DNA of 64,000 nt from Octopus sinensis (Eukaryota): assembly GCF_006345805.1 (NCBI RefSeq), contig NC_043007.1:47740001-47804000 (forward strand), read 5' to 3'. Both the position numbers and the translations under genes were made by a program. The notes below the pieces were generated by a model. The model was not told where the DNA came from and did not search any database. It worked only from the letters and a program-made list of their open reading frames with translations. This document shows, in pieces, positions 9,848 through 63,450 of this stretch (its first letter is position 1; each line of letters opens with the position of its first letter).

Positions 9848-10204
9848 GCAGGCATGGCTGTGTGGTAAGAAACTTGCTTGCCAACCACATGGTTCCAGGT
9901 TCAGTCCCACTGCATGGCACCTTGGACAAGTGTCTTCTACTATAGCCTTGGGGCCAACCAAAGCCTTGTGAGTGGATTTGGTAGGCAGAAACTGAAAGAA
10001 GCTTGTGGATGTATGTATATAAACGCAGGCATAGCTGTGTAGTAAGAAGTTTGCTTTACAACCACATGGTTCCAGGTTCAGTCCCACTAACACCTTGGAC
10101 AAGGGTCTTCTACTATAGCCTTGGGGCCAACCAAAACCTTGTGAGTGGATTTGGTAAACAAACTGAAAGAAGACCGTCATATATATACATATATATGTAC
10201 CGTC

Positions 10205-14750: not shown

Positions 14751-16542
14751 GTGAGTATACAGAAAGTCTTGAAAACAAAATATAAGTACCCTTTGTTAAA
14801 TGTCAGTTTGCTTCAAACAGCTTTATCACAACCAAGGAGTTAGTGCCTCATCAGTGGGATGTTACACAAACAAAAAGCTTCTCAAATCTCACATTTATAG
14901 CACCAACAGCTAATATTCTCGTATCTGTTGGACTGTGCCATTTTGGCAAAATGTTTTTTGGCTGACAATGCTTTGTGAAGGAAACTGGTTGTGTGTGTAT
15001 ATGGTGTACGTATGTCTGTATTTGTGTGTGTGTGTATAAATATGTATATAATCGCCATATATCACCTGTATTCTGTGCTGGCATGGTTTGAATGGTTTGA
15101 CAGGAACTGATTGGTCAGAGGACTGTGTTGAGGTCTAATGTCTGTTTTGGTATAGTTTCTAAGGCTGGATGCCCTTCCTAATATCAACCTTTTCACATGG
15201 TGAGCTGGGTACTTTTTCACGTCACTGGTATTAGCCAGATTGCCAAGTAGTTTGCAAGATAAGACCCCCTTGGTTGACAGTGAGTGTAGCATTGAGGGAT
15301 GTGGCTCATGCCAGATGTTCTGAGGAGTAGAAACAGGTGTCTTACTGTAGAGGAGTACCCATGCTGGAAAAGAAGAGATGGTGGTGATGAGTTTGTACCT
15401 CAAGGTACAAGATTGTGAATGTGAGAGGGATGGAGACAGAAAGAGATTATAGGGAATAAGGACAGGGGAACAGGTAAGTTCACAATCTAGGACACTCAGT
15501 AAACTGGTTGGCACTGGAAGGGCATCTAACTGTGGAAATCATATCAAAGCAGACATTGGAGCTCAATGAAGTCCTCTGACTTATCAAATCCAACCTATAT
15601 TGGCATGGAAGGCAAGTGTTAAATGATGATAATGATAACATATATGATGTGTGTATGTGAATGTTATAGTCCTTGTCTTTGTAGCAGGAAGGGCTGACTA
15701 AATCACTGCCTGAGCAAGTCTTTGTCTAGCACATGCCAGCATGAAAAACAAATATCACAGGAAACAAAATGAACCCAGTCAGGTAGCCATTAATGATCTG
15801 TTGCAGCTGTATGTCTTAAATGGTGGTTTTTGTTTCAATTGGTTAAATTTTACTTTTCAGTATCAGAAAATCTCAGCTCTATAAACTAATTTAAAATTAT
15901 GTTCCATCAACCCTAACTAGAATGTTGCCATCTCTATATTACACCACATTGTCTCTAATCTAATATTGCCATCTCTCTATATTCTGCTATATCATATCTG
16001 ATCTATTATCATCATATCTATCTCACCATACTTTATCTAATTTGATGCTACCAACTCTCTCTCTCTTACAATACTATATCCGATCTAATGGTGAACTTGG
16101 TATTGGACTACTAGTGAAAGCAGTTTCTTGAGCAGTGTTGTCACCGTAGACAAGCTGTTCTGCTTGATATATATATAAATATTTATATTTGAAAACATTT
16201 CACTCACACTCTGGTCTGGATGAGGTAAAAGCTGAATGCATACTTGTAAAATGGAGCAAGTAATCACCTGTATTAGCACATAGCTTAGTGTTGGCACATA
16301 GTTGTATGTTAGCTGTAAGGTTTTAACCTTGTAGATTTGGTAATGTTTATGATTGTCTCTTATATTTTCAAGTAATATATTTTCAAATGAGAGTTACAAA
16401 AACATGAACTCAGCTCTTTTGTAAGTTGGTCTGCTGGTATTTATATGTCTTTTTCTTAATATCACATTTACTCGTTCATCTACACAACAATTAATAGATA
16501 GTATATATTTTCTAATTATTTAATATTCTTTTTCCATTGCAG

Positions 16543-16674
16543 GCAATTGAAAGCATTCAAGAAATTGGTCACAACTTTAACATGAAGTTTCTAAAATATG
16601 CTCAGTCCAGCCAAGTGAAACACATTCGTGATTCGTCAGTTAGTTATGCATCTGCTGCTCTTACCATTCAGTGA
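16543..16674 (+). CDS. MEMO1: MEMO1 last coding exon
   Basis: ttgcAG|; AIESIQEIGHNFNMKFLKYAQSSQVKHIRDSSVSYASAALTIQ* (YAQSS, DSSVSYA motifs); TGA at 16672-16674. Confidence 0.96.
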   Translation, partial: AIESIQEIGHNFNMKFLKYAQSSQVKHIRDSSVSYASAALTIQ

Positions 16675-16937
16675 CGTTAATTTCTGTTTAACATCACAAT
16701 ATTCTGCACTTTTATCACTTTTTTTTTGTAAAGTGTATATATATATATATACATACATATATATACATACACACACTGCTAAGTTGTAGAATTAATCTGT
16801 TAGTACAAAAAAACTGACTGACCTCTCCATCATCTGTTCTGAAGAGACTCCAAACTTGTATGTTCTAATCAATGGCCATTGGAAGATTAGCTCTTTAAAA
16901 TAACTATCCTCAAACAGCAAATATTGAGGTCATATTG

Positions 16938-16968
<31 letters not shown>

Positions 16969-18240
16969 CTGGCATTATTGTAAGCTGCCTATTCTTCTTT
17001 GGTTAAAACAAGCTTTAACAAGGTTAACAGTGATGTTCTACTTTTCTTTGTGTCTTTCCTCTATCTTAAAGATGCTTTAATAATATATACTACTTAGAAA
17101 TAATGGAGAAAAATCGGACTTATTGTTTTCATTTCTTTTTTCTTTAAATATTTTAGTAAATTATTGCGAAAAAAGGGAAAGAAAAACCACTCAAAAATCT
17201 CAGAATTAGTTATATATTTGAAAGGAAAATTATACAGAAAAATTAGTTTTAGTTTTCGGTTATCTTCCATATCTTTTATAATTTCATTGTGTCTCTTTTA
17301 TAAGCTACATCCATCTGATGCTGGTTACTTCTAAGCGTTTATAATAATAGACCTCTAACTTTCAAACAAGGCCACACAGAATGCATGTTTATTATACTTT
17401 TGCAGAGGAAAGGTTGATTGTTGCTTTAAAGTTTTGGCCTGCTTGCCATTGGCAGATTGTCTGACAAAAGTGAGTAAGTGGAAATTTTGAAGTAATTTTC
17501 AACCTTGTCCTTTGTGTGTGTGTATATATATAATATATACACAACTTGCAAGATGCTTCCATCAAGAGAATGGCACAGCCCTGTCTCGGTTCATTAGCAT
17601 ATAAACTGTCTCACAGTTATGCTTTGTACTCTGGTTAATCTGGACATGACTCTGCTGTTCTCTGGATGAAATATAAAAAAATGCTTTACCATCAAAAGTG
17701 TTGAATATTTCGTTGGTTTACAAATACCTTCATATGGTAAGGATTACCTGTATTATGATGTGTGTGTGTGTGTGTTTTTATATACATATATGTATACATA
17801 CATATTTGTGTGTGTATAGATATATCCCAATGCTATAACACTGTAATAATCAATAATGAAAAGAACTCAATTACATAATTAAAATTTAATACAAGCAGCC
17901 ACATATTTACTCTACCCAACATGTGTGGTTTTCTCTATTCCATACCAGGTATATTCTATATATATGATAAACATGTAAGCATAGCAATTCTGTCATTCTT
18001 TATTCTAATGGTAATGTATGTAATTGAATAAAAGTAATTTAGAATAGCAAAATAATTTTCCTAGTTTCTAGCAGTCAAGGTTTTTTACCTGTCAAGTTAC
18101 TCTTGTAACACAAATAAGAATTAGGAAACAATCTTCACTAAAAAGAATGAAAAAAAAATGCCTGATATATTTCTAATGCTCAGTTATGTAGTTTTGAGAT
18201 ATCTAGAGTTGTGAATAACTTGCATCTTGTTATATATATA

Positions 18241-18273
<33 letters not shown>

Positions 18274-19230
18274 CTGGTGACACAGAGGCAGCATCGTCTG
18301 CTGTATTAACTGGCTAGAATATGGGATTGCTTACACTGAGAAACGGATGGAGTAACTTGTTAGAATTTAGGTTAAAGGTGTTTATATTTAGTTATGCCTT
18401 GTTAATTCTTCACAGTATGAACTTTGATGTAGCTAGCTCAGGTATCCAAATTACTTGCTGGTTTGACACTTTTACCATATTCTTCAGCTGAATGTATTAG
18501 ATCTGTTCAGTAACTCAGATTGATTCCTTTAGAAGGTAATCTCTACTTTTGGAAATTACATTTGGAATCTCAAGGAATTCTATGAAAATTAATGTTTAAA
18601 ATTATTTTCTGTCCTGTAAAATCCAAACTTGAGAAATTTGCTTGAGCTTAAAATGGTCATTAATGAATGCAATATTCTTCAAGTTCATTGTATTTCTAAG
18701 ACATTCCATCTTTTAGTCATTCCTTCATTTTATTATTATTAATAATTTCCTACTAATAACATATAGGATGTTTCTAATTTCCTTGCAGAAAAAGCAATTA
18801 GATTAATTTTAGGTTAGAATTTCTTTATGGAAAAAATTTTAATTAGGAAATATTGAGTAGCTCCTGAATTATTAACAAACCAACAACAAAAGGAAAATAA
18901 TGCCAATATCCACTAGGTACCTGAATAATCTCATACCTACAAACATTTCATAATTTAGCTTTTGACAATGATCCTAAGTTCTTTTTTCTTTCTCAATTTT
19001 GGTTTGAAAATTTAACTCCATTTCTTTCTTATTTCACAAGGATTCCATTTGTTATGTGTTTTTTTTTTTAAATTATTGTTTTTCTCTCTCTGAGAGATCA
19101 ATTTCTCAAATACTTACCAGCTCTTTACAATTGTTGCATTCTAAAGTTTGGTTTTTTTTTTTTTTTGTTGGTCTCGTTAATGAGCTTAAAATTGCTGACT
19201 TCTTTTAGTATCCAATATGTAATTCCATTT

Positions 19231-19236
19231 AATAAA
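19231..19236 (+). terminator. candidate MEMO1 polyadenylation signal
   Basis: AATAAA ending a ~2.5 kb repeat-poor AT-rich stretch after the stop; another AATAAA at 18027. Confidence 0.35.
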
Positions 19237-19526
19237 GACTTCTTTTTTAACTAGAAATAGTTGTTGACTCAATATTCAGTATCCATAAAAAATGTACCTT
19301 GGGTTTCAGAACATTAAAGGAATCATATTCTAAATTGAAGGCTATTGTCACCAGTAACAATAGCTGTATGAATTGAGCTGATCTAACGATCAGCAAAACA
19401 GCTGCAGTGTATTTAAACTTAAACTTGATGAATGATGAACTTGATAACACTTCTTTATATTCTATCCAAATATGGTAAAACTGGTTCACTTCAGCAGGTA
19501 AAGGGATGTTTATCTTCATTCTTAAT

Positions 19527-20201
19527 GTTTCAGCAGATTCAAACAGGAATATGCTAATCACTGTTTATTCTATCTGTGAAGAACAACTTTTCCTTTCAGA
19601 TGATCTGTGATAATACACTTGATTCATTGAGGACCAGGTTGTGTCTTTTCAATCAAGGCTACCCTTGGGTCAATGAATCTTAATGCTTTAGCATTTGGGT
19701 CACTCTGTCAAAGTTTATGCTTATATTTTCACTTTGTTTTGAATTAATTCTACATTATTTCACAGCTTCATAATTTTGATGATGTGATTGCCTATTTTTA
19801 CAATGGCATTAAAAGGTAGGTGTGAGAGGCCAGATCAGGCCAGTTTCAACATAAAGCAGAATATTTTGACCAGATATGACTGGTTTAGATACTAAAGTGT
19901 TGAACAAGGATTGTGGTTCTTGTTTATAGAAATCAGTAAATAATTTGCTATCACCTGCACACAGCAGCAAATAATTTTCTGATTTCTATAATCAAGAACC
20001 ACAGCCCTTGCTTAGATTCAATGATTTAGGGATAGCTTTGACAGAAGAAACACAACCTGGTCAAAATAATGTGATGTGTCAATGTGCCCTTATATTAATG
20101 ATTCAAGTATTTTGTGAACACACATCATCTGAGGAGAAATTGTTCTCCATAGACAAAAATATGGCAGCAGTTAGCATATTCATGTTTGAATCTGCTGGAA
20201 C
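19527..20201. repeat. foldback (long inverted repeat) element with nested TTAA MITE
   Basis: 19527-19680 and 19904-19949 are reverse complements of 19966-20201; MITE 19684-19899 interrupts the left arm. Confidence 0.85.
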
Positions 20202-20931
20202 GCAAGTAGTGTGCACATCATAAATTTCCAAAGAACACTGATATAATTTGGTGCCAACTTGTGACTGGAGCCTCAGTATTAGTATGCCAAGAACTTAAAT
20301 ATGTGATGATGCCCTGAGGTAATAGTATGTCCCATTTGTCATTGAGTCATTGCAGTAGTTCCTCATCTATTTCACTGTATCTACACAAAGTTGGCCTGCA
20401 GAAACCAGACATCCTTCTTCAAGATAGATGTATGGGGAGACTTGAACTTAGAGCTATACCTAACAAAACTCTTGTCAGTTGTGCAGTGTCCCCACTGTGA
20501 GCTGAATAATTCTATAACTTTTTTATTATGAAGATTGAGCCACATCATATTGCTGATGATGGGGAAATGTGAAAAATTTGGTCAGTAAGACTACATTTAT
20601 TGACTCAGCTGCTAGGAACTCCATTAAAGGAAGGTATTTAAAAGATATATATGATTTATATTGTCAACATCATTTAATAATATGTGTTCCATGCTGGCAT
20701 GGATATCAACTAGATTGGATGTAATCAAATACATTTCATTCACTTCAGCATGTTTTGTATTTAAATGATTGCCACATTATCAAACTTTGACCTTCAAATC
20801 CTAATACTAACCATACATCTCATTTCATGCATCATTCTGATGAATTGTTAAATATTGCTAGGATATGAAATCAAGTCCTGTACTACCAACCAACCTTATT
20901 GTCACTCAAAAAAACCCAAAAAAACCTGGCA

Positions 20932-22347
20932 TCTGTATATACACTTGTACCGCCGGTATTTGTCAGGCTAAGATAGTTAAGTCATGATTAAATTCGAGTT
21001 ATTTCCCTCAACTTCTGAATTGACATTGCTTGCAATGCTTGAAAGGTGTTAAAACTCTTCACTGTATATCCAAGCTTCCAGTTCCTTTAAGTGAAACAAG
21101 TGTGTGCAATGTTCCAAATTTTGATCAAGGAAACATTCTTAGAAGAGTAAAAGTTTTCATTACTGACAAAGCTTCAATGATACCAGTTTATGCTTTGAAA
21201 GCTATAGATAATTGTTTAAGAGATATATAAGAGATTGTATTAAAATTATTGTACTAGGAGGAGATTTTAGACAAGTTCTTTCAGTTGTTCCCAGAGCTCC
21301 TCCAGAAGCTGTACTTGATTCCTGCCTCAAACGCTCCTCTGTGTGAGATAATTTTCATCAAATGTAACTTACGCAAAACAAGAACAAATGCAAATGAACA
21401 AGATTTTTCAAGGTGGTTACTACAACTTGGAAGTGAATTTCTTCAAAGTTCTCTTGATAATCTCGCAGAAGATACTGTTGATATTCCTGAAGCATGCATG
21501 TGTAACAATTCTTTTGTATCTGATATATTTGACAATTGTACAGCAGAAGAAATGAAAAATAGAGTGATCTTATCCCCAAAAAATTCAGACTGCTTAGCAG
21601 CAATTGAAATTTTAAGTAGATTGCCCACTGAAACTAAGACAAATCTAAGCACTGACTTAGTAACTTCTGATAACGAAGAAGCCTAGAATTATCCCATTGG
21701 AGTTTATAAACACTTTTACACCTTCTGGAATGCCTCCCCATCACCTTAACTTTAAAGTTGGAGCAATTATTATACTTCTTAGAAACCTCTCTATAATACA
21801 AGGTCTGTGCAATGGAACTTGCTTGTAAGTACTTCAGCTTCATGAGCATAGCATCAATTATAAGTGGATCTCATTCTCACACGGGAGCACTGATTCCAAG
21901 AATCAAACTTACTCCAAGCAATGCAAACATTCCATTCATTCTGCATTGGACCCAGTTCCCGGTTCATCTGTCCTATTCTATGACAATAAAGCAGAGGGGC
22001 AAACATTCAATAGAGTTGACATACACTTGCTACAGCCATGCTTCACTCATGGCCGGCTTTACATAGCTTTTTCAAGAGCAAGGGTGATGAACAGTGTGAG
22101 GTTTAAAGTGATGCCTGAAAACGCATCCACTCGTGGTTGCAGAAGGGAATCACCTACACTAGATACCTTGTGTATAGGGAAGTGGTGTAATGGATGTATT
22201 TAATATATACTTATTAATAAATATAACATAAAGGATTATAGAAGTTTTCATTAACCAAAATAGTGCAAATTAAACCATTTTAATCAAATATCTATTCATT
22301 GAATGATATTTTAATTATCCATGAATTTTCCTCACGGGTCCAGCTAG
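20932..22347 (+). mobile_element. internally deleted Helitron carrying a decayed PIF1-type helicase C-terminus
   Basis: A|TC 5' end, 3' hairpin CCATGA..TCACGG then CTAG|T; helicase motifs ITDKASM, LGGDFRQVLSVV, FSRWLLQLG, ILSPKN, TPSGMPPHHLNFKVG, LRNL..GLCNGT, IPRIKLTP, QFPVHLSYSMTI, FTHGRLYIAFSR broken by stops/frameshifts. Confidence 0.92.
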
Positions 22348-22898
22348 TTTCTCATTATTTTGACAAGCTCATTTCTCATATTTCAGAATATATAAAATAT
22401 GAAGTATTCTCAACAGAGAAATGTGAGTGCAGATACATGGACTATGAAACAAAAGTTTTTGTAGTGAAATATTTGATTACCTCAGTATGTGAGAGGGGAG
22501 AGAAATATAGTCACTGGCATTACAAGCTTCAACCTATACAGGTTGTGATATCACTTGTTCGGTCTCCTTCAAATGCTTGAGACATAACACCATTGTAAGG
22601 ACACTATTGCACCTACTCAGTAGCAGCTGAAAAATTAGTCTTAAAGACTGTACTGGAATGCACATCTATAGAAATAAAAGCAGAAATACAACATTCATGT
22701 ATTGTCCAAGTCTACCTTTACTGATGTTGCCACCAGAAACCTACAGGCATTTAGGAACAGAAAATGAAGGCTATCCAATATCTCCTGTTTACTGCACTGA
22801 CCCATACTATAAACTACTGTATATGCAGTATAGCTCTCAACAAGTTAGTAGCTAGATATGCAGGTTACAATCAGATGTTTGATTCAATTTCTCTGTAG

Positions 22899-23182
22899 CA
22901 GTGATTCTCAACTATTTTTTACTTATGGGCCCCTTTTTTCTGGTGGACCCTCATAGCCATTCAATGTTTAAAAACTCGTTTTATAGATACTTTAAAAATT
23001 TTTATTTTGTCTATTACGCATTAGCTTGAGTCAGTTGAACTGTTTAAACATCAGAGAAAGAAACCTAGCCGTTTCTTGTAATAAATACAGCTAAAGCAAA
23101 ATTTGCTTATCTTGCTTATGCAGACCCCACAAAATTTTATATGGTCCACAAGAGATTATATGAACCCAGTTGAGAACTACTG
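22899..23182. mobile_element. hAT (Charlie-like) MITE
   Basis: TIR CAGTGATTCTCAAC...GTTGAGAACTACTG; imperfect 8-bp TSD CTCTGTAG/CTCTATAC. Confidence 0.75.
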
Positions 23183-24300
23183 CTCTATACTGTAGGTCTT
23201 CTGGAGGAGTTTTGAAGAAATTGTCAAGCAATGTAGGTAAAACAATACAGAGTTTGTGAATATACCTGTGTCCAAGTGATTCTGTATATTAACTATTAAT
23301 GAAGGTCATTTAAAACAATGTTTGGAAAGAAGTAAAAAAAAATAAATACAACAAGAACTTGAGTTCCATTTGTGATACGGTGTCTCACTGCTGTCTTCAA
23401 GAAACTAGTTTTGGTCTCTGCTCCGAAAAGGATTATTTGCAGCTTTTAGTATCCTTGTTGCAGTTGTTAAATAAAATCAAAAGCATAAAATCATAAGAAA
23501 CTCCCTTGAAGAATAATGAGATTACTGTTTTTAAAAAAAGGTTGTGAAACTTCTGAATTTAATGTTAATGGCTGATAGATTTGTCAAAGAGAATTTCAAG
23601 TTAGGTAAGTAATTAAAACACTGTTAATCAATTGAAAAATTGTTTTCTTTTTTCAGTTTGTTTGAACATTAAAAAGTAGCAATGGAGTGAAGCCTGAACT
23701 TCAAATATATATATGTGTGTGTCTAACCTAAAGTTCACTTATGCTTAAACACTACTTGGTATTGATACTGCTGAATTTTTCCTAACCGGGTGGACTAATA
23801 ACAATTCAGTCAATGTTGTTTACTGTGCTTCAGTTAATGTTATGGCTTTAAATCTGCCCAGAGTTAACTCTCTTCAGTATTTCCCATTGATAATGACTAG
23901 AGAGCATGACACACTGCATCTGAGAATCAACACTGGGCAGATATGGTGTTTTTATACCTTTTTACCATAATAGAGGGTATTTTCTCCATGGTTATTGCAG
24001 TGAATTTGCCTTTAGAAGTTGAAGTGTGTCACAAACACAGTTTAACTAATCTAAAGTTTGCTTATGCCTAAACATTGCTTGGTGCAGATAACAGTACTGA
24101 AAAAGGGCAAATAGCCTGAAACCAGGTTGGTCTACTGGTCTTGTCAAATCCCTATATGGTAGCGATTCGCTCCCCTGCTCTCAATATATCAGACATAGGT
24201 TGTGTCATTAACCAGCTGGAGGAGGTGTTCTGGGCTACAAAAAAGGAGTAATGTTGTTCTGTATGAAACACCCATGTTGAAGCACCAACAAACATTACTT

Positions 24301-24334
<34 letters not shown>

Positions 24335-24610
24335 ATATATATATGTAACAAAACACAATGTTTCCCATCAGTCATACTGGGGAATGAAGGAACAAAGTGA
24401 GAGTGGGTGACAGAGACACTAAAGCAAGTGAACAACATTCAAATTTTTATTGTAAATTGTATTTAGTTTTTCAGTTTCACTCATGCACACATATAAATAT
24501 ATATATGGAATTAAATATTAAACACTTGTTTTCAAAATATTATCATTCACATAACATATGTATAGATGTTATGTGAACAAGAATGAATGTATGTATGTAT
24601 GTATGTATAT

Positions 24611-24642
<32 letters not shown>

Positions 24643-24644
24643 CA

Positions 24645-26800
24645 TATACAAAATAAGAAAATGGAGAAATACATCTAAATCATTTATCAACTACCAGATA
24701 ATACCATAAGAACATTAGGGTTAAACATAAAAATATATAACAAAACAGCGTACATGAATGAGTAATACAATACAATAAGTACAATCATTATAAGAGGGTA
24801 TAAATAAATAAATATAAATAGATATAAATATATATATACATATATAACTACAAAATTAGAAAATGGAGAAACATACTTAAATCAATCAAACATCAACCAC
24901 CAGATGATACCCAATCAATACTTTATTACACCATTACATAACAGTAAAGGCATTATACAAAATATACTGTAAATATAATTAGACAAGGAAATAGAAATAT
25001 AAAATATAAAATATAATATGTAATTATATCATATCTGACAGCTGTTTCGGCAGTAAGGGCAAGCATGCCTCATTTAACCTATAAGCCATATAAGGCAGGT
25101 ATAAATGAGACATTAACAAGGATGCCCCACGGCCTCTTCAGAGAATTTAATTTATTATAAGTGTGAAAAAAATTTTTTTATATACATATAAATATAAAAA
25201 TATAAAATATAAAAACGTGTGCATAGACACCCATAATACTACACATATATATATACTCATTAATACAATAATACAAAATAAACAAAACAAAATAAAATAA
25301 AATATATATCAATATATATTAATAAACACAGTTATTCTACATATTGGGCTAATAGTTCTAAAAACTAACACACAGGAAAATATATGCACACTCACATTTA
25401 AATTAAAATCAGACCTATACATGAAAAATAATAAAAAAACACAGTTCAGTTCATAAAATTATAAACCTGTAAAAGTCAATAAAAATTATTATTAATATTA
25501 ATAATAATAATAATAATAGATACAATTATGTCTGTACCAAGTACATCCATCGGACATCGACATATATATGAGTCTGGTTATTCTGTCCGCTTGATATTGA
25601 TTATTCTAGATTAATTCGATTGGCTTATAGTTTAAAATTTGAATCACAAAAGAAATTTTACGGTTAGTTAGTCAAGAAACGCACATACGCACACGCACAT
25701 CCACAGATCAATCGCACATACATACATAATTATATGTATACACACACACATACACTCATACACATACATATCCACAAACAACGTCAAACACATAAATAAA
25801 TAAATAATAAAAGAGGTATAATCCTAGCTATGCAGCCATCCAGCCTCTCAAAACGATAACCATACCACTAAATTAACTAAATAGATTCACTCACATATTT
25901 CCATAAAATATTTGTTATAAAGATACATATATTTATATATCACGACATCGAATGTTATTTTTGCAGGGTACACGCAGCATGAGACACCGTTTTTTCTGTA
26001 GTCAACATAACGTTTACTGATTTCACCGTAATTTGCTATAATTACATGTACGCTAAGTTATAAAGTATAGATTAATTTTTTATAGTATAAATATATATCT
26101 TTTCTACGTAATAAATCCAGTGCCATTATAATATTAATATTTATCCATCAAAGAACCTAACCTACGAACTAATAGAATTACACTCAAATATACATACTCT
26201 TGTGTAGCAGCAGATATACACAAACGCACCGTCTATTTTCATATGTGGCTCGCAAGTGCTTATATACAAATATACTTTTAAGCAACCGTGGACACATAGA
26301 TAACAAATGTAATAATTAACAAGATTTGGCATTAAATAATATCAATGGGGGACTAACCAATACAATTGTATATAAGTAAATAACAGAAATTAAATTAATT
26401 ATAAGTTAATAAATTGTAAATACTTAAGTTAAAAATGTGATAAAATAAATAAGAAGAAATAATTAAAATTACATACATAATATAAGTACAAACCAGTATA
26501 CATGTATCCATATATTATTAAAATAAATAATTGGTATGTATGTATATATCTACACTTAAATAGGTAAATAAATAAATAAATAAATAAGTAAATGACTAAA
26601 TGAATAGATAGATACCATAGAAAACAAATTCAGATAAATACCTAGGTACAGGTACACCTAATATATAGTAATGCTAATATGCATATATCCTCATATGCAT
26701 AAAAGAGTATATATGTAAATAAATAACATAAAATAAAGTGAAGATATATATTGAAGAAAGTAATTATATAAACTTAGTATAAACTTAGTATAAACATCTT
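24645..26800 (-). mobile_element. probable Penelope-like element non-coding/pLTR region
   Basis: very AT-rich, duplicated AAAATGGAGAAA..CCAGAT(A/G)ATACC block (~24650, ~24850) and an embedded hammerhead motif; boundaries uncertain. Confidence 0.45.
25034..25144 (-). ncRNA. hammerhead ribozyme motif (Penelope-type minimal, extended stem II)
   Basis: minus strand TCT-CTGAAGA-GGC...GCC-GAAA-C-AGCT-GTC-AGA: full catalytic core, stems I/II and palindromic stem III. Confidence 0.8.
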
Positions 26801-26829
26801 CCAATACCTTAAATTTCTCTCTCACTCAC

Positions 26830-27930
26830 CTTAAGGATCACCTGTACGGTTTGTATAAAGCCAGATCTACTGGTGATCTATACTCGTCTGTTACCCACTG
26901 ATGGGTTCTTGCTTTGGAGTAATTTAGTAAAAACAATATTGCTACCCATGACATCAGTAGAGCTTTCAACTGTATATGGGATATGAATCTCCACTTGAAA
27001 CTTCCTGCCAATGGACTCCACTCTCATCTCATTTCTTGAATAAGTAACTTCTTATCAGAGCACACCATTACTGTTTGTGTTGACAAAACTGTTTCTGTCC
27101 CTAACTTTATCAACTCTGGCATGCTCTAGGATTTGGTCTTGTCACCCATTCATCTACTCTCTTCCTTCTGTACATCAATGTTTTACTTACCACTACATCC
27201 AACAACACCTACTTTTACACAGATGATACTATCCTTTATTCTCTAATATTCCTCGACCTTGATTTATCCACTCACAATCTAGTTACCACATATCAAACCC
27301 ACATTGACTTCATGATCACAGACCTTGAAAACATCTTCTGGTAGCACCATGCCAATCTGTTTTTTTTCTTTATTTTTTTTTCGAATGCCAGTTAATACAG
27401 ACACTGCTCATATCAAGAAGACAGCATCACACCATATCACGACTAGTCATGAGTAATGCTTAGCAAGAATCTTCAGTAGTTGAGTCTCACTATCATTGAA
27501 GATCTCTCTTGGTGAAAGACCATTCTTTGCATAATTAGGATCACATTCCACCTAGAAGCCTGTCTCATCAGGATCAGAAGAATTTCAGTCCCTATCAGTT
27601 ATTAATATGCTATAAAGCTCAGGTGAAGCCCACAAGGGAATATTGCTCTAGCATCTAGGACAGTATCACTATGCAAACATAGACCACATCCAGAAAAAGG
27701 TCAAAAGCCACTCACATGCAGGTCCCAGCCTGTCTCCTGTCTCTGAGTTTTCTATACCTACTGTAGTGGCCTCTGCTCCTCACAGCCTATTGGTTTTGAA
27801 CTTCCATCACCTCTTAGACATTCCAATCCCACTTACTTCTCTTCCTGTCACCTTTCCGGTATCTACCCTACCACTACTATCACACACATTAACCTGGGTT
27901 CTCTCCCTGCTCTTATCTGTTTCGTAGGTG
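26830..27930 (+). mobile_element. old CR1/L2/Jockey-group LINE reverse-transcriptase remnant
   Basis: decayed DISRAF, INSGML*DLVLSP, FLLYIN, YTDDT and YKAQVKP..EYCS motifs with many stops. Confidence 0.7.
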
Positions 27931-28178
27931 TTTAGTTAAAGCCTCAACAGAAGCATTAACCTAGCATTAGTCTCACCAGTCTAAGAAGACCTGCAAAGAT
28001 CACAGATTCAGCCCATTTCTTCAGACAAAAAAACAAATAAAATGAAATACGATATAATTTTCGAAGATGGTAATGAATTCTTAAGATGCCCTGTGAGGGT
28101 ACACACACACACACACACATTAACAAGTTCCACCTCAACCTTTAAACATATTTTACTTATGTAAAGGAGATATTATTC

Positions 28179-28609
28179 GGATCTTTTTGGTTTGAACGGC
28201 AGTTTTTTCTAGCGGTGTCATATGAAATTGTCATCCATAATTATGACCCTAGTATCGATCTATTGCATTTCAATCTGTTTTAGGGTTAGGGTTAGTTAGG
28301 GTTAGGGGTGGGGAAAGGGTATCTTTTTTTCTTCACAAATGTAAATAAACCCAATCTGTTTCTTAAACGAGGGACATATTCATACGGCACAGAATGTTTT
28401 TTTTTTTTACCTCAATAGACGTCAGTGATTGGTTTAAATTGCAGAAATTGAAGAAAAAAACAACAAATATCTTACAAACTATAGAATTTTCTCAATAAAG
28501 CCAAGAGAAAAAGATGTTTTATAAACACATTCTACCAGTATACGAAGTTTAAAATTTTTTAGTTACCTAGAAATTATGTTAAAAACTGCCGTTCAAACCG
28601 AAAAGATCC
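28179..28609. mobile_element. MITE with GG-starting TIRs and 8-bp TSD (Merlin-like), containing TTAGGG repeats
   Basis: TIR GGATCTTTT(T/C)GGTTTGAACGGCAGTTTTT (~29 bp, 1 mismatch); perfect TSD TATTATTC at 28171-28178 and 28610-28617. Confidence 0.85.
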
Positions 28610-28727
28610 TATTATTCAAATTATATATTTTCAGGTAAAATATTTAGCAGATATCAATCGGAATTTTTTCTGTTTTTTTTTTTGAAGAGTGCTTCACGTC
28701 TTGAGCGGCCTTAGTATCATAGTAAAA

Positions 28728-28838
28728 ATGGCTGACATCGAAGAGAATTTACGTGAATTAGTGGAATTACAGAACGACTACAATGCTACATTACACGACA
28801 TTCAACTTTTGGTGAGAGATATTGAAAGACTACAAAAG
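28728..28838 (+). CDS. uncharacterised ~100-aa coiled-coil-like protein, exon 1
   Basis: AAAATGG start context; MADIEENLRELVELQNDYNATLHDIQLLVRDIERLQK; donor after 28838 or 28841 (both in frame); CpG-retaining surroundings. Confidence 0.75.
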
Positions 28839-30579
28839 GTGGTGTGTCTTACGTTTTTCTTTTGTATCTCTTCTATTAATTTTCATTGTGAAAACCATCC
28901 TGTAGAATGGAAGATATGTTATTCTGTAAACTGTCAACATTAGCGGAGGATGAGAACACCTTCCGTTAATGTCGTCATATTTTGCTTCTGCTTCTTTACC
29001 AGTTGTAACTTCAGTTAAATAAAAGGCTGAAAGTAATTAACATGTATAGTTAGCAAGGAATATGGAAAAAGGGAACTCAAACGGCCCATCTTCAGGAATG
29101 CAATAATGAAAGTAGTAGTGGTGATGGAATGTTTTGATTAATTTCAATGATTCATATTTTTAGAGGAAGGGTTAACAGGTAATTTTGATGAGCAACATAA
29201 ATGGAATGAAATTAATTGGCATTCGCTTGAAATTCTATGTAGACTCACTCTCCCATACCTCTCTATACACAGTAGCGTACCATACCAGTAATATATTTTG
29301 TTCCCGTCGCACACACTTCTGTTAAATTATATATATATATACACACACACACATATAAAAATACATGAACTGTTAACTCGTTTGGTGTATTACCAACAGC
29401 TTTAACATATTCCGACAGTTTCTCATGTTTTTATATTTGAATTATAATAAAATTTAGCAGAACTGAAACCTATTATAAATCTAATTTCTTTACATGTAAA
29501 ATAGAAATTATCTTGGAAGTTAGCTGTGGTGTTGAATCAAAGTTCGAATTCTGCTGGGTTTAAAAAAAAAATTTCAATTACCTATAAACTATTGGGGTAT
29601 TTATAATTTACTCTAATCTCACCCCGCCCTTCCAATTGTGGTCTTGTACCAAAGTTAGAGTTTCTTACTGAAGCAAACACTTCAATAGACTAGGAAGAGA
29701 TTTGGTTCTTAATCATTTTTGCAGCATTCATTCCTTAAGTCATGGAATCCTAAGTAATTAGAACGTAACATCTATATTATTTTGTATGTTTGTATGAGGT
29801 ATGCATGCAAACTCGTCGCCAGACTTAGAATATTCTGGGAGGGCACTAATTTGTAATAATAATAAAGTGGGGTTTCTCGACAAGTTCTTTAATTGGAGTT
29901 CTGATCTTTTAACCAGTCATAACTTTTTTCATTTTTTATTTTTTGGTATCTTCAGAAAATTTTTGTAAACTGTAGTTTCTAAATCTGAGGATGCACTATT
30001 GAATAGTGAGGGGACAGTGCCGTCTAGTGTCTCTTTTTCCTTAGCAATGGGCATGTATGTATGTAAAGTGTGAGAGAGGCATATTGTTACTTTATTTTCT
30101 ATCAATGACTATTTTCTTTGGCTTTTGATTGTTATTTTTTCATTAAATAGTTTTCTTAAATATCCCATAATCATTTTATCATACACTTTTCCATGCTTAT
30201 GTTACCTTCGACGGAATTTGTTGAGGTAAATTTTCTATGGCCAGATACCCGTCCTGACATGATCCTGTACCTGTTTCTTAAGAAGGTGATGCTTCCTCAA
30301 GGCCAGGCAAGTTGTTCATGGAAAGATAGCAGAGATTCTTTAGTTAAAATTTCACCTAATGCTATCCTCCTCTTCAACATCGTCATCATCTACTATGACT
30401 CAGGGATTCCAGTATGGCTGCTCTACCATTCATATTATTTGCTGCCCAGATCACCCGAAGCAGTAGAACTAGGCATGTCCAGACAATTGAACAGGATTAT
30501 CATTACATTGTGCCATTTTAGGTCAATTGTATTGTCTGGTTTTTATTAATAACATTTTCCTTATAATGTCTTTTTGCAG

Positions 30580-31690
30580 GTTACCTCAGTGATGAATGAC
30601 AATGACCTTACTTTCATGGCTGGTGACTTCAATAGACACGTTGGGTAGCATCCTGGAGGATTCCATGATATGCATGAAAGCTATGGATTTAGTTCTTGAG
30701 CTGAGGAAAGAACAAGGTTCTTGGAGTTCTGTGATGTAAATGACCTAATAATTCAGAACACTAACTTCAAGAAATGAGACAGTCACCTGATCATTTATCA
30801 GTCTAGTGGGCATACAAGCCAGACTGACTATATCCTCATTAGAAAGCAGGTTAGTTAGATGCTTGTAAATACAAAGTCCTTTCCAGATGAAGAATGTTCT
30901 AAGGTTAGTTGTTAACGACTTCAGACTTAGAAGGATTCAGAGACACAAACCAATCTGGAAAAGGAAAATACAGAAAGAATGGTCTGAGATATATGTTTAA
31001 ATCAGAACTTCTATATAATGAAAAGGAGATAGACATATGACACTTAGGAGAATTGGAAGTTCTTATAGGACAGCATATTTATTGTAGTCAGGGTGTGGAC
31101 GACATGGTGGTGGAATGGTGAAGTAAACAGAGCCATAAAATCAGTGAGACAGGTTTGGGATGAATGGAAGAAGGAGTAGGAGCAGAGGATTATATCAAGT
31201 TACTGAAGGAGAAGATAGACAACAGGTATATTTAGAAAGGGGAGAAGTAGAAAGGAAGAGGTTTGTCAATGTTCTGTAGCATGATGACAAAGGCATGAGG
31301 TTTTCTGGAGTGCAAAGCAATGTATTACTGAAAATTGAGACATTGCAGAGAAGTGTATATGAATAGATAATGGTACACTTACACTTAGTGATGCTGAAAA
31401 GAAAGAGGCATGAAAGTGCTACTGTGAAAGGCTACTAAACATGGAGAATATATGGGAGAAATAGAGCTTTCTAAATATGAACTGTGGGACTGGCTATTCT
31501 AGCTGACAGCTGTATGATTGATAAAGCAATTAAAGATATGAAGATAGGGAAAGCTGGTCCATTAGGAATTACCTCCCAGATGCTTAAATATCTGGTGATG
31601 TGAGATACAGCCTAGTCTTCCATATAATTAATCAGTTTGTACAGGAAGGTATCATACCTCACAATAGGCATAACATTACAATCAATCCTT
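30580..31690 (+). mobile_element. RTE-like LINE fragment (endonuclease to start of RT), decayed
   Basis: MAGDFNRHVG, NTNFKK, SQTDYILIRK, TWWWNGEV, AIKDMKIGKAGP motifs with stops. Confidence 0.8.
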
Positions 31691-31759
31691 AAAAAAGGCG
31701 AACACTTGACAATATGATCCTTCATAATTATCTTTATTTTTCTCTGATTTTATTTACAG

Positions 31760-31874
31760 GAGAATGAGAGTTTGGCTGTGCAGCAAGACTGTTCTGAAAG
31801 TTTTAACTGGTCTCCATTGAAAGAAACATTACGGATTGTACTGGAAATAGACAAGAACCCTGAACTTGAAGAAG
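31760..31874 (+). CDS. uncharacterised ~100-aa protein, exon 2
   Basis: long pyrimidine tract + tttacAG|, AAG|GTacac donor; open, phase 0 to 1: ENESLAVQQDCSESFNWSPLKETLRIVLEIDKNPELEE. Confidence 0.75.
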
Positions 31875-32520
31875 GTACACTCTTCTTTTTACAATTTTAA
31901 TCTTTTGCTCTCACTCTTTGCCATATTCCTGCGATACCTACTGCAACATTCTTAATGTTGCAGTTATGTTTGATCCAGTTTAGAGTTAGTGTGTCTCAGC
32001 ATATTTCTCCCTACATGGATGAGAAAAGGGAAAGTGTTCATGTCAGTCATGTTAAATGAATAAATTGTAATATCTCTCTTTCTTTTGCTCTCTCCCTCTT
32101 TCTTTCTCTCTCTCTCTCTCTCTGTATATGTATATTTCTCTCAGTGTGTATGTGTGTTTGCCTTCAATGCCAAAATCTACTGTTGCAAAAACAGGCTGAA
32201 TGTCCAGTCAATTATGCCAAATCATCAGTGTCCAAACAACTGCACCCAGCCATCTCATGTCAAAGATTCACTATGTCTAAACAAGGAGGGAATGGTCAGG
32301 ATTGATCATGAGCTAGACAGCTATGATAATAAATCAATGGCTATGTACAAAAGCAAGCAATTCATCCATCTTAACATTTTGTGTTCAAATTCTCTCAAGG
32401 TCGACTTTACCTTTCATCCTTTTGGGGTTAATAAACACTGGGGTCAATGTAATTGACTACTCCTCTCCCTCCAAATTTCAGGTTTTGTGCCTTCTGTAGA
32501 AAGGGTGATTATTATTATTA

Positions 32521-32995
32521 CATGGAAAAATGTGAGCATGAAAAGTCATATTCTTAAGATTATAAACCTGGAAAAGTACAGGACAAATTATTACACCTGT
32601 AAAAGTATAGGACAAGCTATTACTTCTTGTAAAGAATAAAGAACTTTTTACTTAAAATATTGCAGCAAAGAATGCCAGATCTTCTAATTTATCACTCTAT
32701 ACAGTTCTCATCTTTTAAATTTATTGTACAAAACTGTTCAGCTAATTCATAAGTTTGTCTAATTAGTCACTTTTTTCTGCATTTAAGGTAGTAAATTAGC
32801 AAAATTTTACTTAAATAAGAATAGTGTTATTTGTAAACTATAATAAAATAAGTTTTAATATTCAAATTTTAATTTTTGCTGCAATATTTTAAGTAAAAAC
32901 GTTTCTTATTCTTTACTAGAAGTAATAGCTTGTCCTATACTTTTCCAGGTTTATAATCTTAAGAATATGACTTTGCATGCTCACATTTTTCCATG
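32521..32995. mobile_element. MITE with long terminal inverted repeats
   Basis: TA|CATGGAAAAATGTGAGCATG...CATGCTCACATTTTTCCATG|TA; inverted homology extends over 100 bp; related sequence at ~52440-52585. Confidence 0.8.
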
Positions 32996-35378
32996 TAATC
33001 CATGATTTTTCCAGACATTGCTCTTATAACATAATTAATAATGTGACAATTAATAATTTAAGATTTAACTGAAAGATAATATTTCAATTTTTCTATAAAG
33101 TGATGATATTTAAATTTTTTTCATGTTTAATATAAATATATGTTGTGATTAAATTATTTGATATTACCCATCCACACCAAATTAATGGCAGGAAATTTTA
33201 CCATGTTGTTGGTTGCACCATGGTTCACCAAAAGTTACGAACAACAAGACCCCAAAACCATCAGTTACCAGGCTCACCTTAAGTAACCTAATTTTGCAAT
33301 ATTAGGAGGTCACAGGAATTCATTCAATGAAAAAAAAAATTTCCAATGATTCTGGGATTGAGCAGGGACCCCTCCACCTCATTTTTTCCGAACCAAAATA
33401 AGGGATTTGCAGCATATTATGAGGTCAGGGTATTCGATTCCACGCAAAAAATCAAATTTTTATTTTTCTTTCTTAGTGAAAATCGTGACCATAATGTTGT
33501 TATTTAACCTCAAATCAACCCTGATACTGCAAACTTATCACCAAAGACATTCCAGCCTTCAGCAAACCTTCTTTTTAGGGATAATCTAGGACATTACATA
33601 CAATGGGCATGTTATTTAGATAGGGGGATACTATGGCTGCTATTTTTAGCATGTTGAGCGACGAGGTAGAGGCTCTTCCATTGGTTCAATTCTGTGATGA
33701 GATTTTTTTATACATATATGTAATATGTATATATATATCATCGGCAGAAGTTAGAGAGTAAGTCAAAAGCTGAGAGTTTCATGTATTGGCACTTATCAAA
33801 CATGAATTTGTCCATTGTCACTCTGTAACTTCTGATAAAATAACTTCTAAAATACAAAAATTTGTCAAAAACGTTAAGAGTAAACCCTGTCCTGTGTGAC
33901 ACAGTCTACCAGTATCGGAAGTTTGAAAGTGTTTAGTTAAAAAAAAATTAATCAAATAATCTGTATGTCTAATTGAATGGATCCGAAATGGATGAAAGGC
34001 AAAGTCGACCTCAGCGGAATTTGAACTCAGAACATAAAGACAGATGAAATACCACTTCTAAAATACAAAATTTTGTCAAAAATATTCTACCCGTATCAGA
34101 AGTTTGAAAGTGTTTAGTTAAAGAAAATTAATGAAATAATCTGTACATCAAAGTCGACCTTGGCGAAATTTGAACACAAAACATAAAGACAGACAAAATA
34201 CCGCTAAGCATTTTGTCTGGCGCACTAACATTTCTGCCAGCTTGCCACCTTAGAATGTAAACATTCATTTTAGAAATATATTCTTTATTCTTATTGCTTA
34301 AGTGTTACTTCTTACTTACTGACATGAAATTTTCATAACATTTTACCTCATAACTGTTTTTCTACTAAAAAAAATTATGTTTATTGAAGATGAATATCTG
34401 CCTTACTGCCCACTTGAGGTCTGACATATTTTGATGTAATTTGTTTTCTACTGAACCAAATCTCAAGCTATTTATGCCAAAGTGTAGCTGAAGAGGTGTC
34501 CTCTTTAATTCAGTTGAGAACTGAATTAGTGGTGAAGCTTGGAAGCTGCTGCGATTGACAAAATGGTGGATTTAAGAATATATTCAACCACTACCATGGT
34601 TGAATGATTAAGGCGGTGAGCTGGCAGAAGTGTTAGTATGCTGGGTAAAATGCTGCTATGCATATTGTCCGTCTTTACATTCTGAGTTCAAATTCTGCTG
34701 AGGTCGACTTTGCCTTCCATCCTTTCAGGGTCAATAAAAAATACGTTCCAGTTAAATACTGGGGTCAGTGTAATTGACTCGCCCACTCTCCCAAAATTGC
34801 TGTGGCAAAAAATTTGAAACCATTATTATTATTATTATTATTATTATTAAGGCAGCAAGCTGATAGAATGGTTAACACACTGGACAAAATACTCAGCAGC
34901 ATTTCGTCTCTCTTTACGTTCTGAGTTCAAATTCCATTAAGGTTGACTTTGCATTTTATCCTTTCAGGGTTGGTGAAATAATGCTAGCCAAATGGTGGTG
35001 GTGGTGGTGGTGGGGGGTCGACTAGCCCATTCCTCCTAAATTTCAAGCCTTGTGCCAATAATAGATTTATATCTATTATTATTATTTTAAGAGATTTTCT
35101 TGCAGTTTTCCATGTTTCCTAAATAGGAGAGTTAGAACAATATATCTTGCCTAAGGAAACAATATTTGATAAGAAACTTGATTGCTTAACCATTCAATAA
35201 TTTATTCAGTCTCTACATAACATTTAATAGTACCCCAGCACTCATATATTGAGTCATTCCATAAATAATGCTTTTTTTTCAATTGCATGAACTAATATAT
35301 ATATAAATCTGTAATTGCCATATATAAGGCTGTTTGATGTTTCTTTCATTACTATTTTCTCTCTTCCTATTTTTACAG

Positions 35379-62684: not shown

Positions 62685-63450
62685 TTTTATTTCTTTATTG
62701 CCCACAAGGGACAAGACAAACAAGGACAGACAAACGGATTAAGTCGATTACATCGACCCCAGTGCGTGACTGGTACTTAATTTATCGACCCCGAAAGGAT
62801 GAAAGGCAAAGTCGACCTCGGTGGAATTTGAACTCAGAACGTAGCGGCAGACGAAATATCTATGTCTTTACTACCCACAAGGGGCTAAATACAGAGAGTA
62901 CAAACAAGGACAGACTAACGGATTAAGTCGATTATATCGACCCCAGTGCGTGACTGGTACTTATTTAATCGACCCCGAAAGGATGAAAGGCAAAGTCGAC
63001 CTCGGTGGAATTTGAACTCAGAACGTAGCGGCAGACGAAATATCTATTTCTTTACTACCCACAAGGGGCTAAATACAGAGAGTACAAACAAGGACAGACT
63101 AACGGATTAAGTCGATTATATCGACCCCAGTGCGTGACTGGTACTTATTTAATCGACCCCGAAAGGATGAAAGGCAAAGTCGACCTCGGTGGAATTTGAA
63201 CTCAGAACGTAGCGGCAGACGAAATATCTATTTCTTTACTACCCACAAGGGGCTAAATACAGAGAGTACAAACAAGGACAGACTAACGGATTAAGTCGAT
63301 TATATCGACCCCAGTGCGTAACTGGTACTTATTTAATCGACCCCGAAAGGATGAAAGGCAAAGTCGACCTCGGCGGAATTTGAACTCAGAACGTAACGGC
63401 AGACGAAATACTGCTAAGCATTTCGCCCGGCGTGCTAACGTTTCTGCCAG
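62685..63450 (-). repeat. tandem concatemer of a Nin/Deu-domain SINE (184-bp unit, ~4 copies)
   Basis: CAAGGACAGA recurs at 62721, 62905, 63089, 63273; single SINE head at ~63410-63450. Confidence 0.9.

Follow-up and report, generated by a model that had tools for sequence, protein, structure and literature searches.

A Hammerhead Ribozyme Motif in a Penelope-like Copy

The window, i.e., the whole 64-kb stretch of octopus DNA analyzed here, carries on its minus strand a type I hammerhead ribozyme motif (25034..25144), established by direct reading of the core and stems and by folding. In the 5′ to 3′ direction, it comprises the stem I 5′ strand TCT (25142..25144), the C3–A9 core segment CTGAAGA (25135..25141), domain II (25049..25134), the G12–A15.1 segment GAAA (25045..25048), the palindromic stem III ACAGCTGT (25038..25045), which forms 2 bp in the monomer and 8 bp in the dimer, C17 (25037), and the stem I 3′ strand AGA (25034..25036). 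The type I core (CUGANGA, GAAA, and UH around the three-way junction) is present. A first-pass annotation of this DNA had claimed a full core on the minus strand, a 3-bp stem I, and a palindromic stem III fit for dimer formation; every element was found at 25144-25034, with TCT/AGA at 25144-25142 and 25036-25034 and the palindrome at 25045-25038. The same annotation had put stem II at about 85 nt; the long arm is indeed there, but its length is 86 nt (25134-25049). The hammerhead numbering and cut rule, which we take as given, place the predicted cleavage site between GUC and A (25036..25037, minus strand); set by this convention only, it agrees with the cut proposed earlier between 25037 and 25036.

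Domain II is an unbranched rod of about 30 bp with a 9 × 3 internal loop. Folded alone, it gave one hairpin (−36.3 kcal/mol, z −4.5), and all the stem II helices named previously were seen in the minimum free energy (MFE) structure, GTGGGGC and GCCCTTAC pairing with one bulge. The 121-nt fold reached −40.9 kcal/mol (z −3.97), a value matched by none of 200 shuffled sequences. The Rfam hammerhead models gave no match to the motif (20000-30000 of the window, E up to 10); they are insensitive here, since they likewise missed a short-armed motif present in L137 and L149 (L-numbers denote individual loci from the 2.72-Gb genome). Rfam miRNA matches in the region were TA-repeat noise far below the cut-off. 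A short-spacer hammerhead scan of the 64-kb window returned 10 matches vs. 22 expected.

The motif lies in a 5′-truncated Penelope-like element (PLE) copy, assigned by its motifs to the Hydra clade (~24848..26781, minus strand), which retains only the non-coding 3′ UTR and pLTR and matches L031-L034 at their 3′ ends with 89-96% identity. Between the ribozyme and the 3′ end of this ~2-kb copy lie 189 nt. A TA-rich tract marks the 3′ junction (24799..24847), and a short 3′-end remnant of an older related subfamily occupies 24600..24810 on the minus strand (85% to L251:557-748, 79% to L139). The 5′ junction borders a decayed RT-like fragment with broken frames, probably of a LINE (26800..27400, plus strand), whose Pfam RVT_1 match (E 0.019) is below the Pfam cut-off; this fragment is separate from the Penelope-like element. 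An 11-bp tandem duplication was noted at the 5′ junction (26767-26795). The main 3′ end (24848-24870) resembles a splice acceptor (CTAAT...TAG), a feature absent from the ends of the 55-nt-arm families, and a donor-like GTGAGT occurs at ~25390, upstream of the ribozyme.

The copy is colinear over ~2 kb with the 3′ ends of ORF-bearing longer copies, and the proposed link to Penelope was borne out, as it matches the 3′ 2 kb of RT-EN-encoding elements. No PLE ORF was found near it among 27 frames of at least 70 aa (15000-35000). The earlier statement that no ORF lies nearby is therefore correct for the copy but not for the element, the ORF being lost here through 5′ truncation. The window copy is a dead fragment without sign of a host role. 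A first look at the genome with the 141-nt motif region gave 1,228 candidates, and the 40 that were scored were all 97-100% identical. Thirty fetched loci shared a common 3′ end near 24800-24850 and had variable 5′ truncations, several with inverted partners.

The Full-Length Element

L092 and L093 each have a 960-codon open frame (947 aa counted from ATG) with the motifs RWR50, DKT151, YRDD, CNCRNKNKC822 (CxCx5C), YIG, CSLC920 (CxxC), and CIH948 (CxH). Motifs read directly in L092, L093, and L031, the last with a 749-aa RT-EN frame upstream of the shared 3′ end, define the 947-aa protein as an RT with an endonuclease (EN) of GIY-YIG type at the C terminus. Pfam gave no RT or EN match for this ORF and PDB likewise nothing useful; a homologue, P0013, matched Pfam RVT_1 at E 4e-5, and among named proteins the closest, with 39% identity, was one from Argonauta hians. 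Long Asn-rich low-complexity inserts lie between RT and EN (L093 residues ~520-810), and such inserts make the ORF of these families ~250 aa longer than in most database relatives.

The ribozyme is present in both 588-bp pLTRs of L095, which are 98.8% alike, at 2185 and 7694, i.e., 5.5 kb apart, giving a unit of ~5.5 kb with the predicted cut ~500 nt before the ATG. The structural traits of Penelope-like elements were all found: partial-tandem pLTRs, inverted 5′-truncated partners, and a 3′ tail. Copies end ~190 nt past the cut or ~175 nt beyond that, then run into (TA)n, and the junctions correspond to the (TA)n target of the Hydra clade. Two 3′ end points ~150-180 nt apart were seen in each family (L093, L219-L231, L121, L130), and 22 of 40 tail matches stopped at one common tail end.

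As described in the accessible text of Craig et al. 2021 (PMC8557442), the Hydra clade is defined by an RWK-like motif, DKT, a CxCx5C linker, and CxxC and CxH in the C-terminal EN; like the octopus element, its members have a C-terminal GIY-YIG domain, (TA)n targets, and a type I hammerhead with near-palindromic stem III near the 3′ end. We assign the element to the Hydra clade on these motifs because Pfam calls no RT or EN domain, the RT tree being one without a named Hydra reference. Published Hydra elements are mostly <3 kb with short-armed ribozymes, traits given in the same source as typical, not diagnostic; the octopus unit is ~5.5 kb, with an arm of 85-86 nt, a 947-aa Asn-rich ORF, and a 3′ UTR of >2 kb.

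Genome-Wide Distribution of the Long Arm

An exact core pattern with an arm of 79-105 nt matched the genome 2,072 times vs. once for the reversed control, and a pattern with an arm of 53-60 nt matched 8,513 times vs. none; a few of the matches listed in the two sets were unrelated. The stem II length singled out as unusual at this locus (86 nt) thus proved to be lineage-wide rather than locus-specific. Closer subfamilies have arms of 82-105 nt. Sister families with 46-55% RT identity have arms of 53-60 nt, unrelated in sequence to the window arm and only at shuffle level of identity to it. In a quick RT tree (71 rows), 18 in-genome rows, three of them (L107, L109, L111) without their own ribozyme identified, were set apart by one branch (SH-aLRT 89), within a group supported at 100 that also held four outside proteins. 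This topology allows a single origin of the long arm.

Could the motif belong to a non-autonomous retrozyme, as the first-pass annotation had entertained beside Penelope, or be a chance hairpin? The ORF-less window copy and the silent Rfam models speak for such a reading, which we nevertheless regard as highly improbable and reject. The excess of 2,072 long-spacer matches over one in the control argues against chance. The motif is part of the 3′ UTR/pLTR in a Hydra-clade element that is autonomous and with which the window copy is colinear; since full copies encode the RT-EN protein and have a ribozyme in each pLTR, the element is not a retrozyme. Non-LTR retrozymes, as presented in the accessible text of bioRxiv 10.64898/2026.07.22.740005, share a type I hammerhead and are pLTR-related, but they are tandem non-coding units, whereas the window copy derives by truncation from an autonomous element, and no tandem unit, short and non-coding as in those retrozymes, was found at the motif site.

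Further hammerhead motifs with arms of 14-68 nt were recorded at L149:2023-2075, L121:9468-9539, L018:2261-2338, L122:1111-1221, L137:3294-3348, and L005:2580-2633, four of the six flanked by short direct repeats at a spacing of 350-500 nt. Three extended loci with such motifs had no RT beside them; for arms of 31-68 nt, RT was found in none of eight extended loci and an EN fragment in one. A ~650-bp inverted repeat (L005:2280-2933) is centered near a small hammerhead-like motif. The word TCTCATT is common to the arms of two families, possibly by chance.

Conservation and Covariation

Compared with the window, the 12 positions of the core varied in 14 diverged representatives at N7 or U4 only: C3, G5, A6, G8, A9, GAAA, and U16.1 were invariant, and position 17 was C or A. 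The 100-nt flanks dropped to shuffle level in the distant representatives, so the core is conserved relative to its flanks, the point on which the first-pass annotation had made its case depend. Stem I was compensated across families (TCT/AGA, TTC/GAA, CGG/CCG, TAG/CTA, CCT/GGG). The stem III palindrome changed as a whole, with five versions in different families (ACAGCTGT, ACACGTGT, ACGATCGT, ACAATTGT, and ACATATGT); a monomer would not need such change, which argues for a dimer.

The covariation of stem II that had been called for was detected in 23 chosen sequences: 88.3% of cells were paired and 13 of 34 pairs showed two-sided change. The pairing and covariation scores were reached by 0 of 500 shuffles, the pair count by 1 of 500, and the pair-type count by 133 of 500, a significance that is overstated because it was the window copy that supplied the structure and the sequences are related to each other. 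All 34 representative arms folded as a single hairpin, with a mean z of −3.7 vs. −1.0 and −0.2 for the flanks and z below −2 in 28 arms vs. 8 upstream and 5 downstream flanks; some of the arms had been preselected for folding, and the 20 from loci picked by pattern alone were all rods. These data demonstrate that the pairing of stem II is kept through sequence change. Stems I and II and the stem III palindrome covary.

In a wider alignment of 29 sequences, only six proximal pairs remained consensus and the distal pairs were lost, which, together with the shuffle-level identity of the sister-family arms, fits a tolerated insertion as well as it fits a protein-binding handle. The former, our main rival to the handle, says that the arm grew once in an ancestor and that selection only keeps it closed and the core undisturbed. 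The spread of lengths from 53 to 105 nt with unrelated sequences between families, the loss of the distal register in distant subfamilies, and the internal-deletion variant L054, which retains the motif with a 50-nt arm, all agree with such a sealed insertion. Against it, the 15 ORF-linked loci of the RT tree included no short-armed member, ~30-37 bp were retained in 24 of 25 representatives of the window-arm lineage, and arm identity stayed above shuffle where that of the flanks did not (L108, 63 vs. 41; L134, 60 vs. 48). On balance, we consider the tolerated insertion rather unlikely. The rod was also considered as a putative pre-miRNA or editing substrate, a reading that we do not adopt.

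Predicted Dimerization and Cleavage

In the monomer, the closing pairs of the arm had probabilities >0.99, stem I ~0.07, and stem III <0.01. The palindrome duplex was predicted at −11.1 kcal/mol and the dimer at −91.5 vs. −81.8 kcal/mol for two monomers, a gain of ~10 through the 8-bp palindrome. Stem III would hence be stable only as a dimer. In the MFE structures of both monomer and dimer, C3-G5 and the cut site were base-paired with each other, a shifted register that is inactive, and stem I was not the favored register. U4C was found in 587 of 2,072 cores (28%), a change that, according to the accessible part of PMC3088659, lowers hammerhead activity considerably in vitro yet allows viroid infectivity. 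Whole subfamilies with U4C have been amplified (L108, L234, L171), in both the long-arm and 56-nt-arm groups. One subfamily with intact ORFs has a stem I of only 2 bp. Several results thus point to cleavage that would be low or assisted. Contigs from four sequencing runs, three of them guessed to be RNA, covered the motif (481 bases around it) with the same subfamily variants; as assembled contigs only, they carry no ends, strand, or level.

The 5′ ends of copies anchored 3′ of the ribozyme were inspected by eye in the first 100 of 157: 77 spanned the cut, 22 began within 39 nt 3′ of it, one had a deletion across it, and none started exactly at the cut. Control 50-nt windows held 15 ends in the first 100 of 151 copies (downstream) and 7 in the first 100 of 311 (upstream). 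The corresponding rates, from samples that overlap and mix subfamilies, were 0.64% per base on the cut side vs. 0.33 and 0.15 (p 0.03 and 0.0002). The 5′ ends just 3′ of the cut (24997-25045) were therefore about two to four times denser than in the two controls; truncation may simply fall with length, and we treat this local excess as a lead only.

The favored inactive register, the U4C cores, and the lack of copies starting at the cut would suit a motif that no longer cuts and is kept as a structural signal for dimerization, packaging, or RT positioning; in PAc, as far as the accessible text of PMC11167929 goes, ribozyme mutants had no effect on insertion in vitro. We find this improbable: the invariant core, C or A at position 17, and the compensated stem I are what catalysis would lead one to expect, and immediately 3′ of the cut, 5′ ends show a mild enrichment.

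Comparison with Known Systems and Proposed Role

Minimal metazoan PLE hammerheads (Cervera and de la Pena 2014, PMC4209133, accessible text) share with the octopus motif the pLTR location, short stem I, palindromic helix III, G10.1-C11.1 closing pair, and dimer logic; they are described as inactive as monomers and weak as dimers. Their helix II has 6-8 bp, far less than here, and, unlike them, the octopus motif needs no extra base between A9 and G10.1. In PAc of the Poseidon clade (PMC11167929, accessible text), the pLTR ribozyme likewise lies upstream of two 3′ end points, cleavage is protein-assisted, and uncut RNA is the main template. PAc belongs to another clade and its ORF starts inside stem II, whereas the octopus ATG lies ~500 nt past the cut.

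The closest published hammerheads are far shorter-armed. In File S2 of PMC8557442, every one of the 26 Hydra rows, the octopus Hydra-1_oBim among them, shows a stem II of 3-7 bp with loops of 3-10 nt, i.e., arms of ~25 nt or less vs. 53-105 nt in octopus, and the octopus tail is ~175 nt vs. the 30-40 bp drawn for PLEs. From other clades, the accessible parts of the same source list PLE-X1_sMoe, whose long spacer (~53 nt) is flagged as deviating, and eight 'HHR_half_core' cases, including an octopus Naiad, with 35-50 nt between the core halves; there they are noted as deviations, without fold, covariation, or copy counts. In the literature searched, we found no report of a long-armed PLE hammerhead, while Repbase and Dfam may hold such variants, and the word 'hammerhead' is absent from the main text of the 2026 octopus repeat annotation. 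The hammerhead type and its Hydra-clade host are known; the very abundant long-armed architecture is new.

Element context, presence of the ribozyme in both pLTRs, and core conservation were demonstrated. On this basis we consider it fairly probable that the motif is a pLTR hammerhead of a Hydra-clade PLE, predicted to cleave slowly, only as a palindrome-paired dimer, and likely with the element's protein. A slow, partner- and protein-dependent ribozyme appears most likely by analogy with PAc and the minimal PLE hammerheads, as far as their published descriptions (PMC11167929, PMC4209133) were accessible. Transcription from the upstream pLTR would yield an RNA with two ribozymes that pair and are cut to unit length, and most new copies would come from uncut RNA. 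With less support, the long rod may fold first and fix the stem II side of the junction, its closing pairs being predicted at p >0.99, and may offer the RT-EN protein a putative handle, and that protein would then free stem I from its inactive register. The inactive-register MFEs, U4C, the subfamily with a 2-bp stem I, and the 77 of 100 copies spanning the cut count against the explanation as a whole.

Why Penelope elements keep hammerheads is an open question in the accessible texts of PMC8557442 and PMC11167929. With its young intact-ORF families, graded arms, and natural core variants, the octopus genome offers a series for testing stem II-RT binding and the gating of cleavage. The core search described in PMC8557442 (accessible part) used a spacer of 7-17 nt; with such descriptor limits whole ribozyme classes can be missed, a point to weigh when ribozymes are said to be lacking in some clades. 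A broader hypothesis, tentative and somewhat doubtful, is that a cephalopod PLE radiation made stem II a protein-docking arm of 53-105 nt and cleavage RT-dependent, with >10,000 ribozymes missed by Rfam and short-spacer descriptors; the split-core, 'ribozyme-less' Naiad and Chlamys elements may share this design.

Other Features of the Window

Broken frames at 21258-22203 (plus strand) resemble what we take to be a Pif1-type helicase remnant, possibly of a Helitron; Pfam gave no support for these frames. SINE-like tandem arrays with units of 184 bp and 173 bp were observed at 62716-63410 and 9848-10172, respectively.
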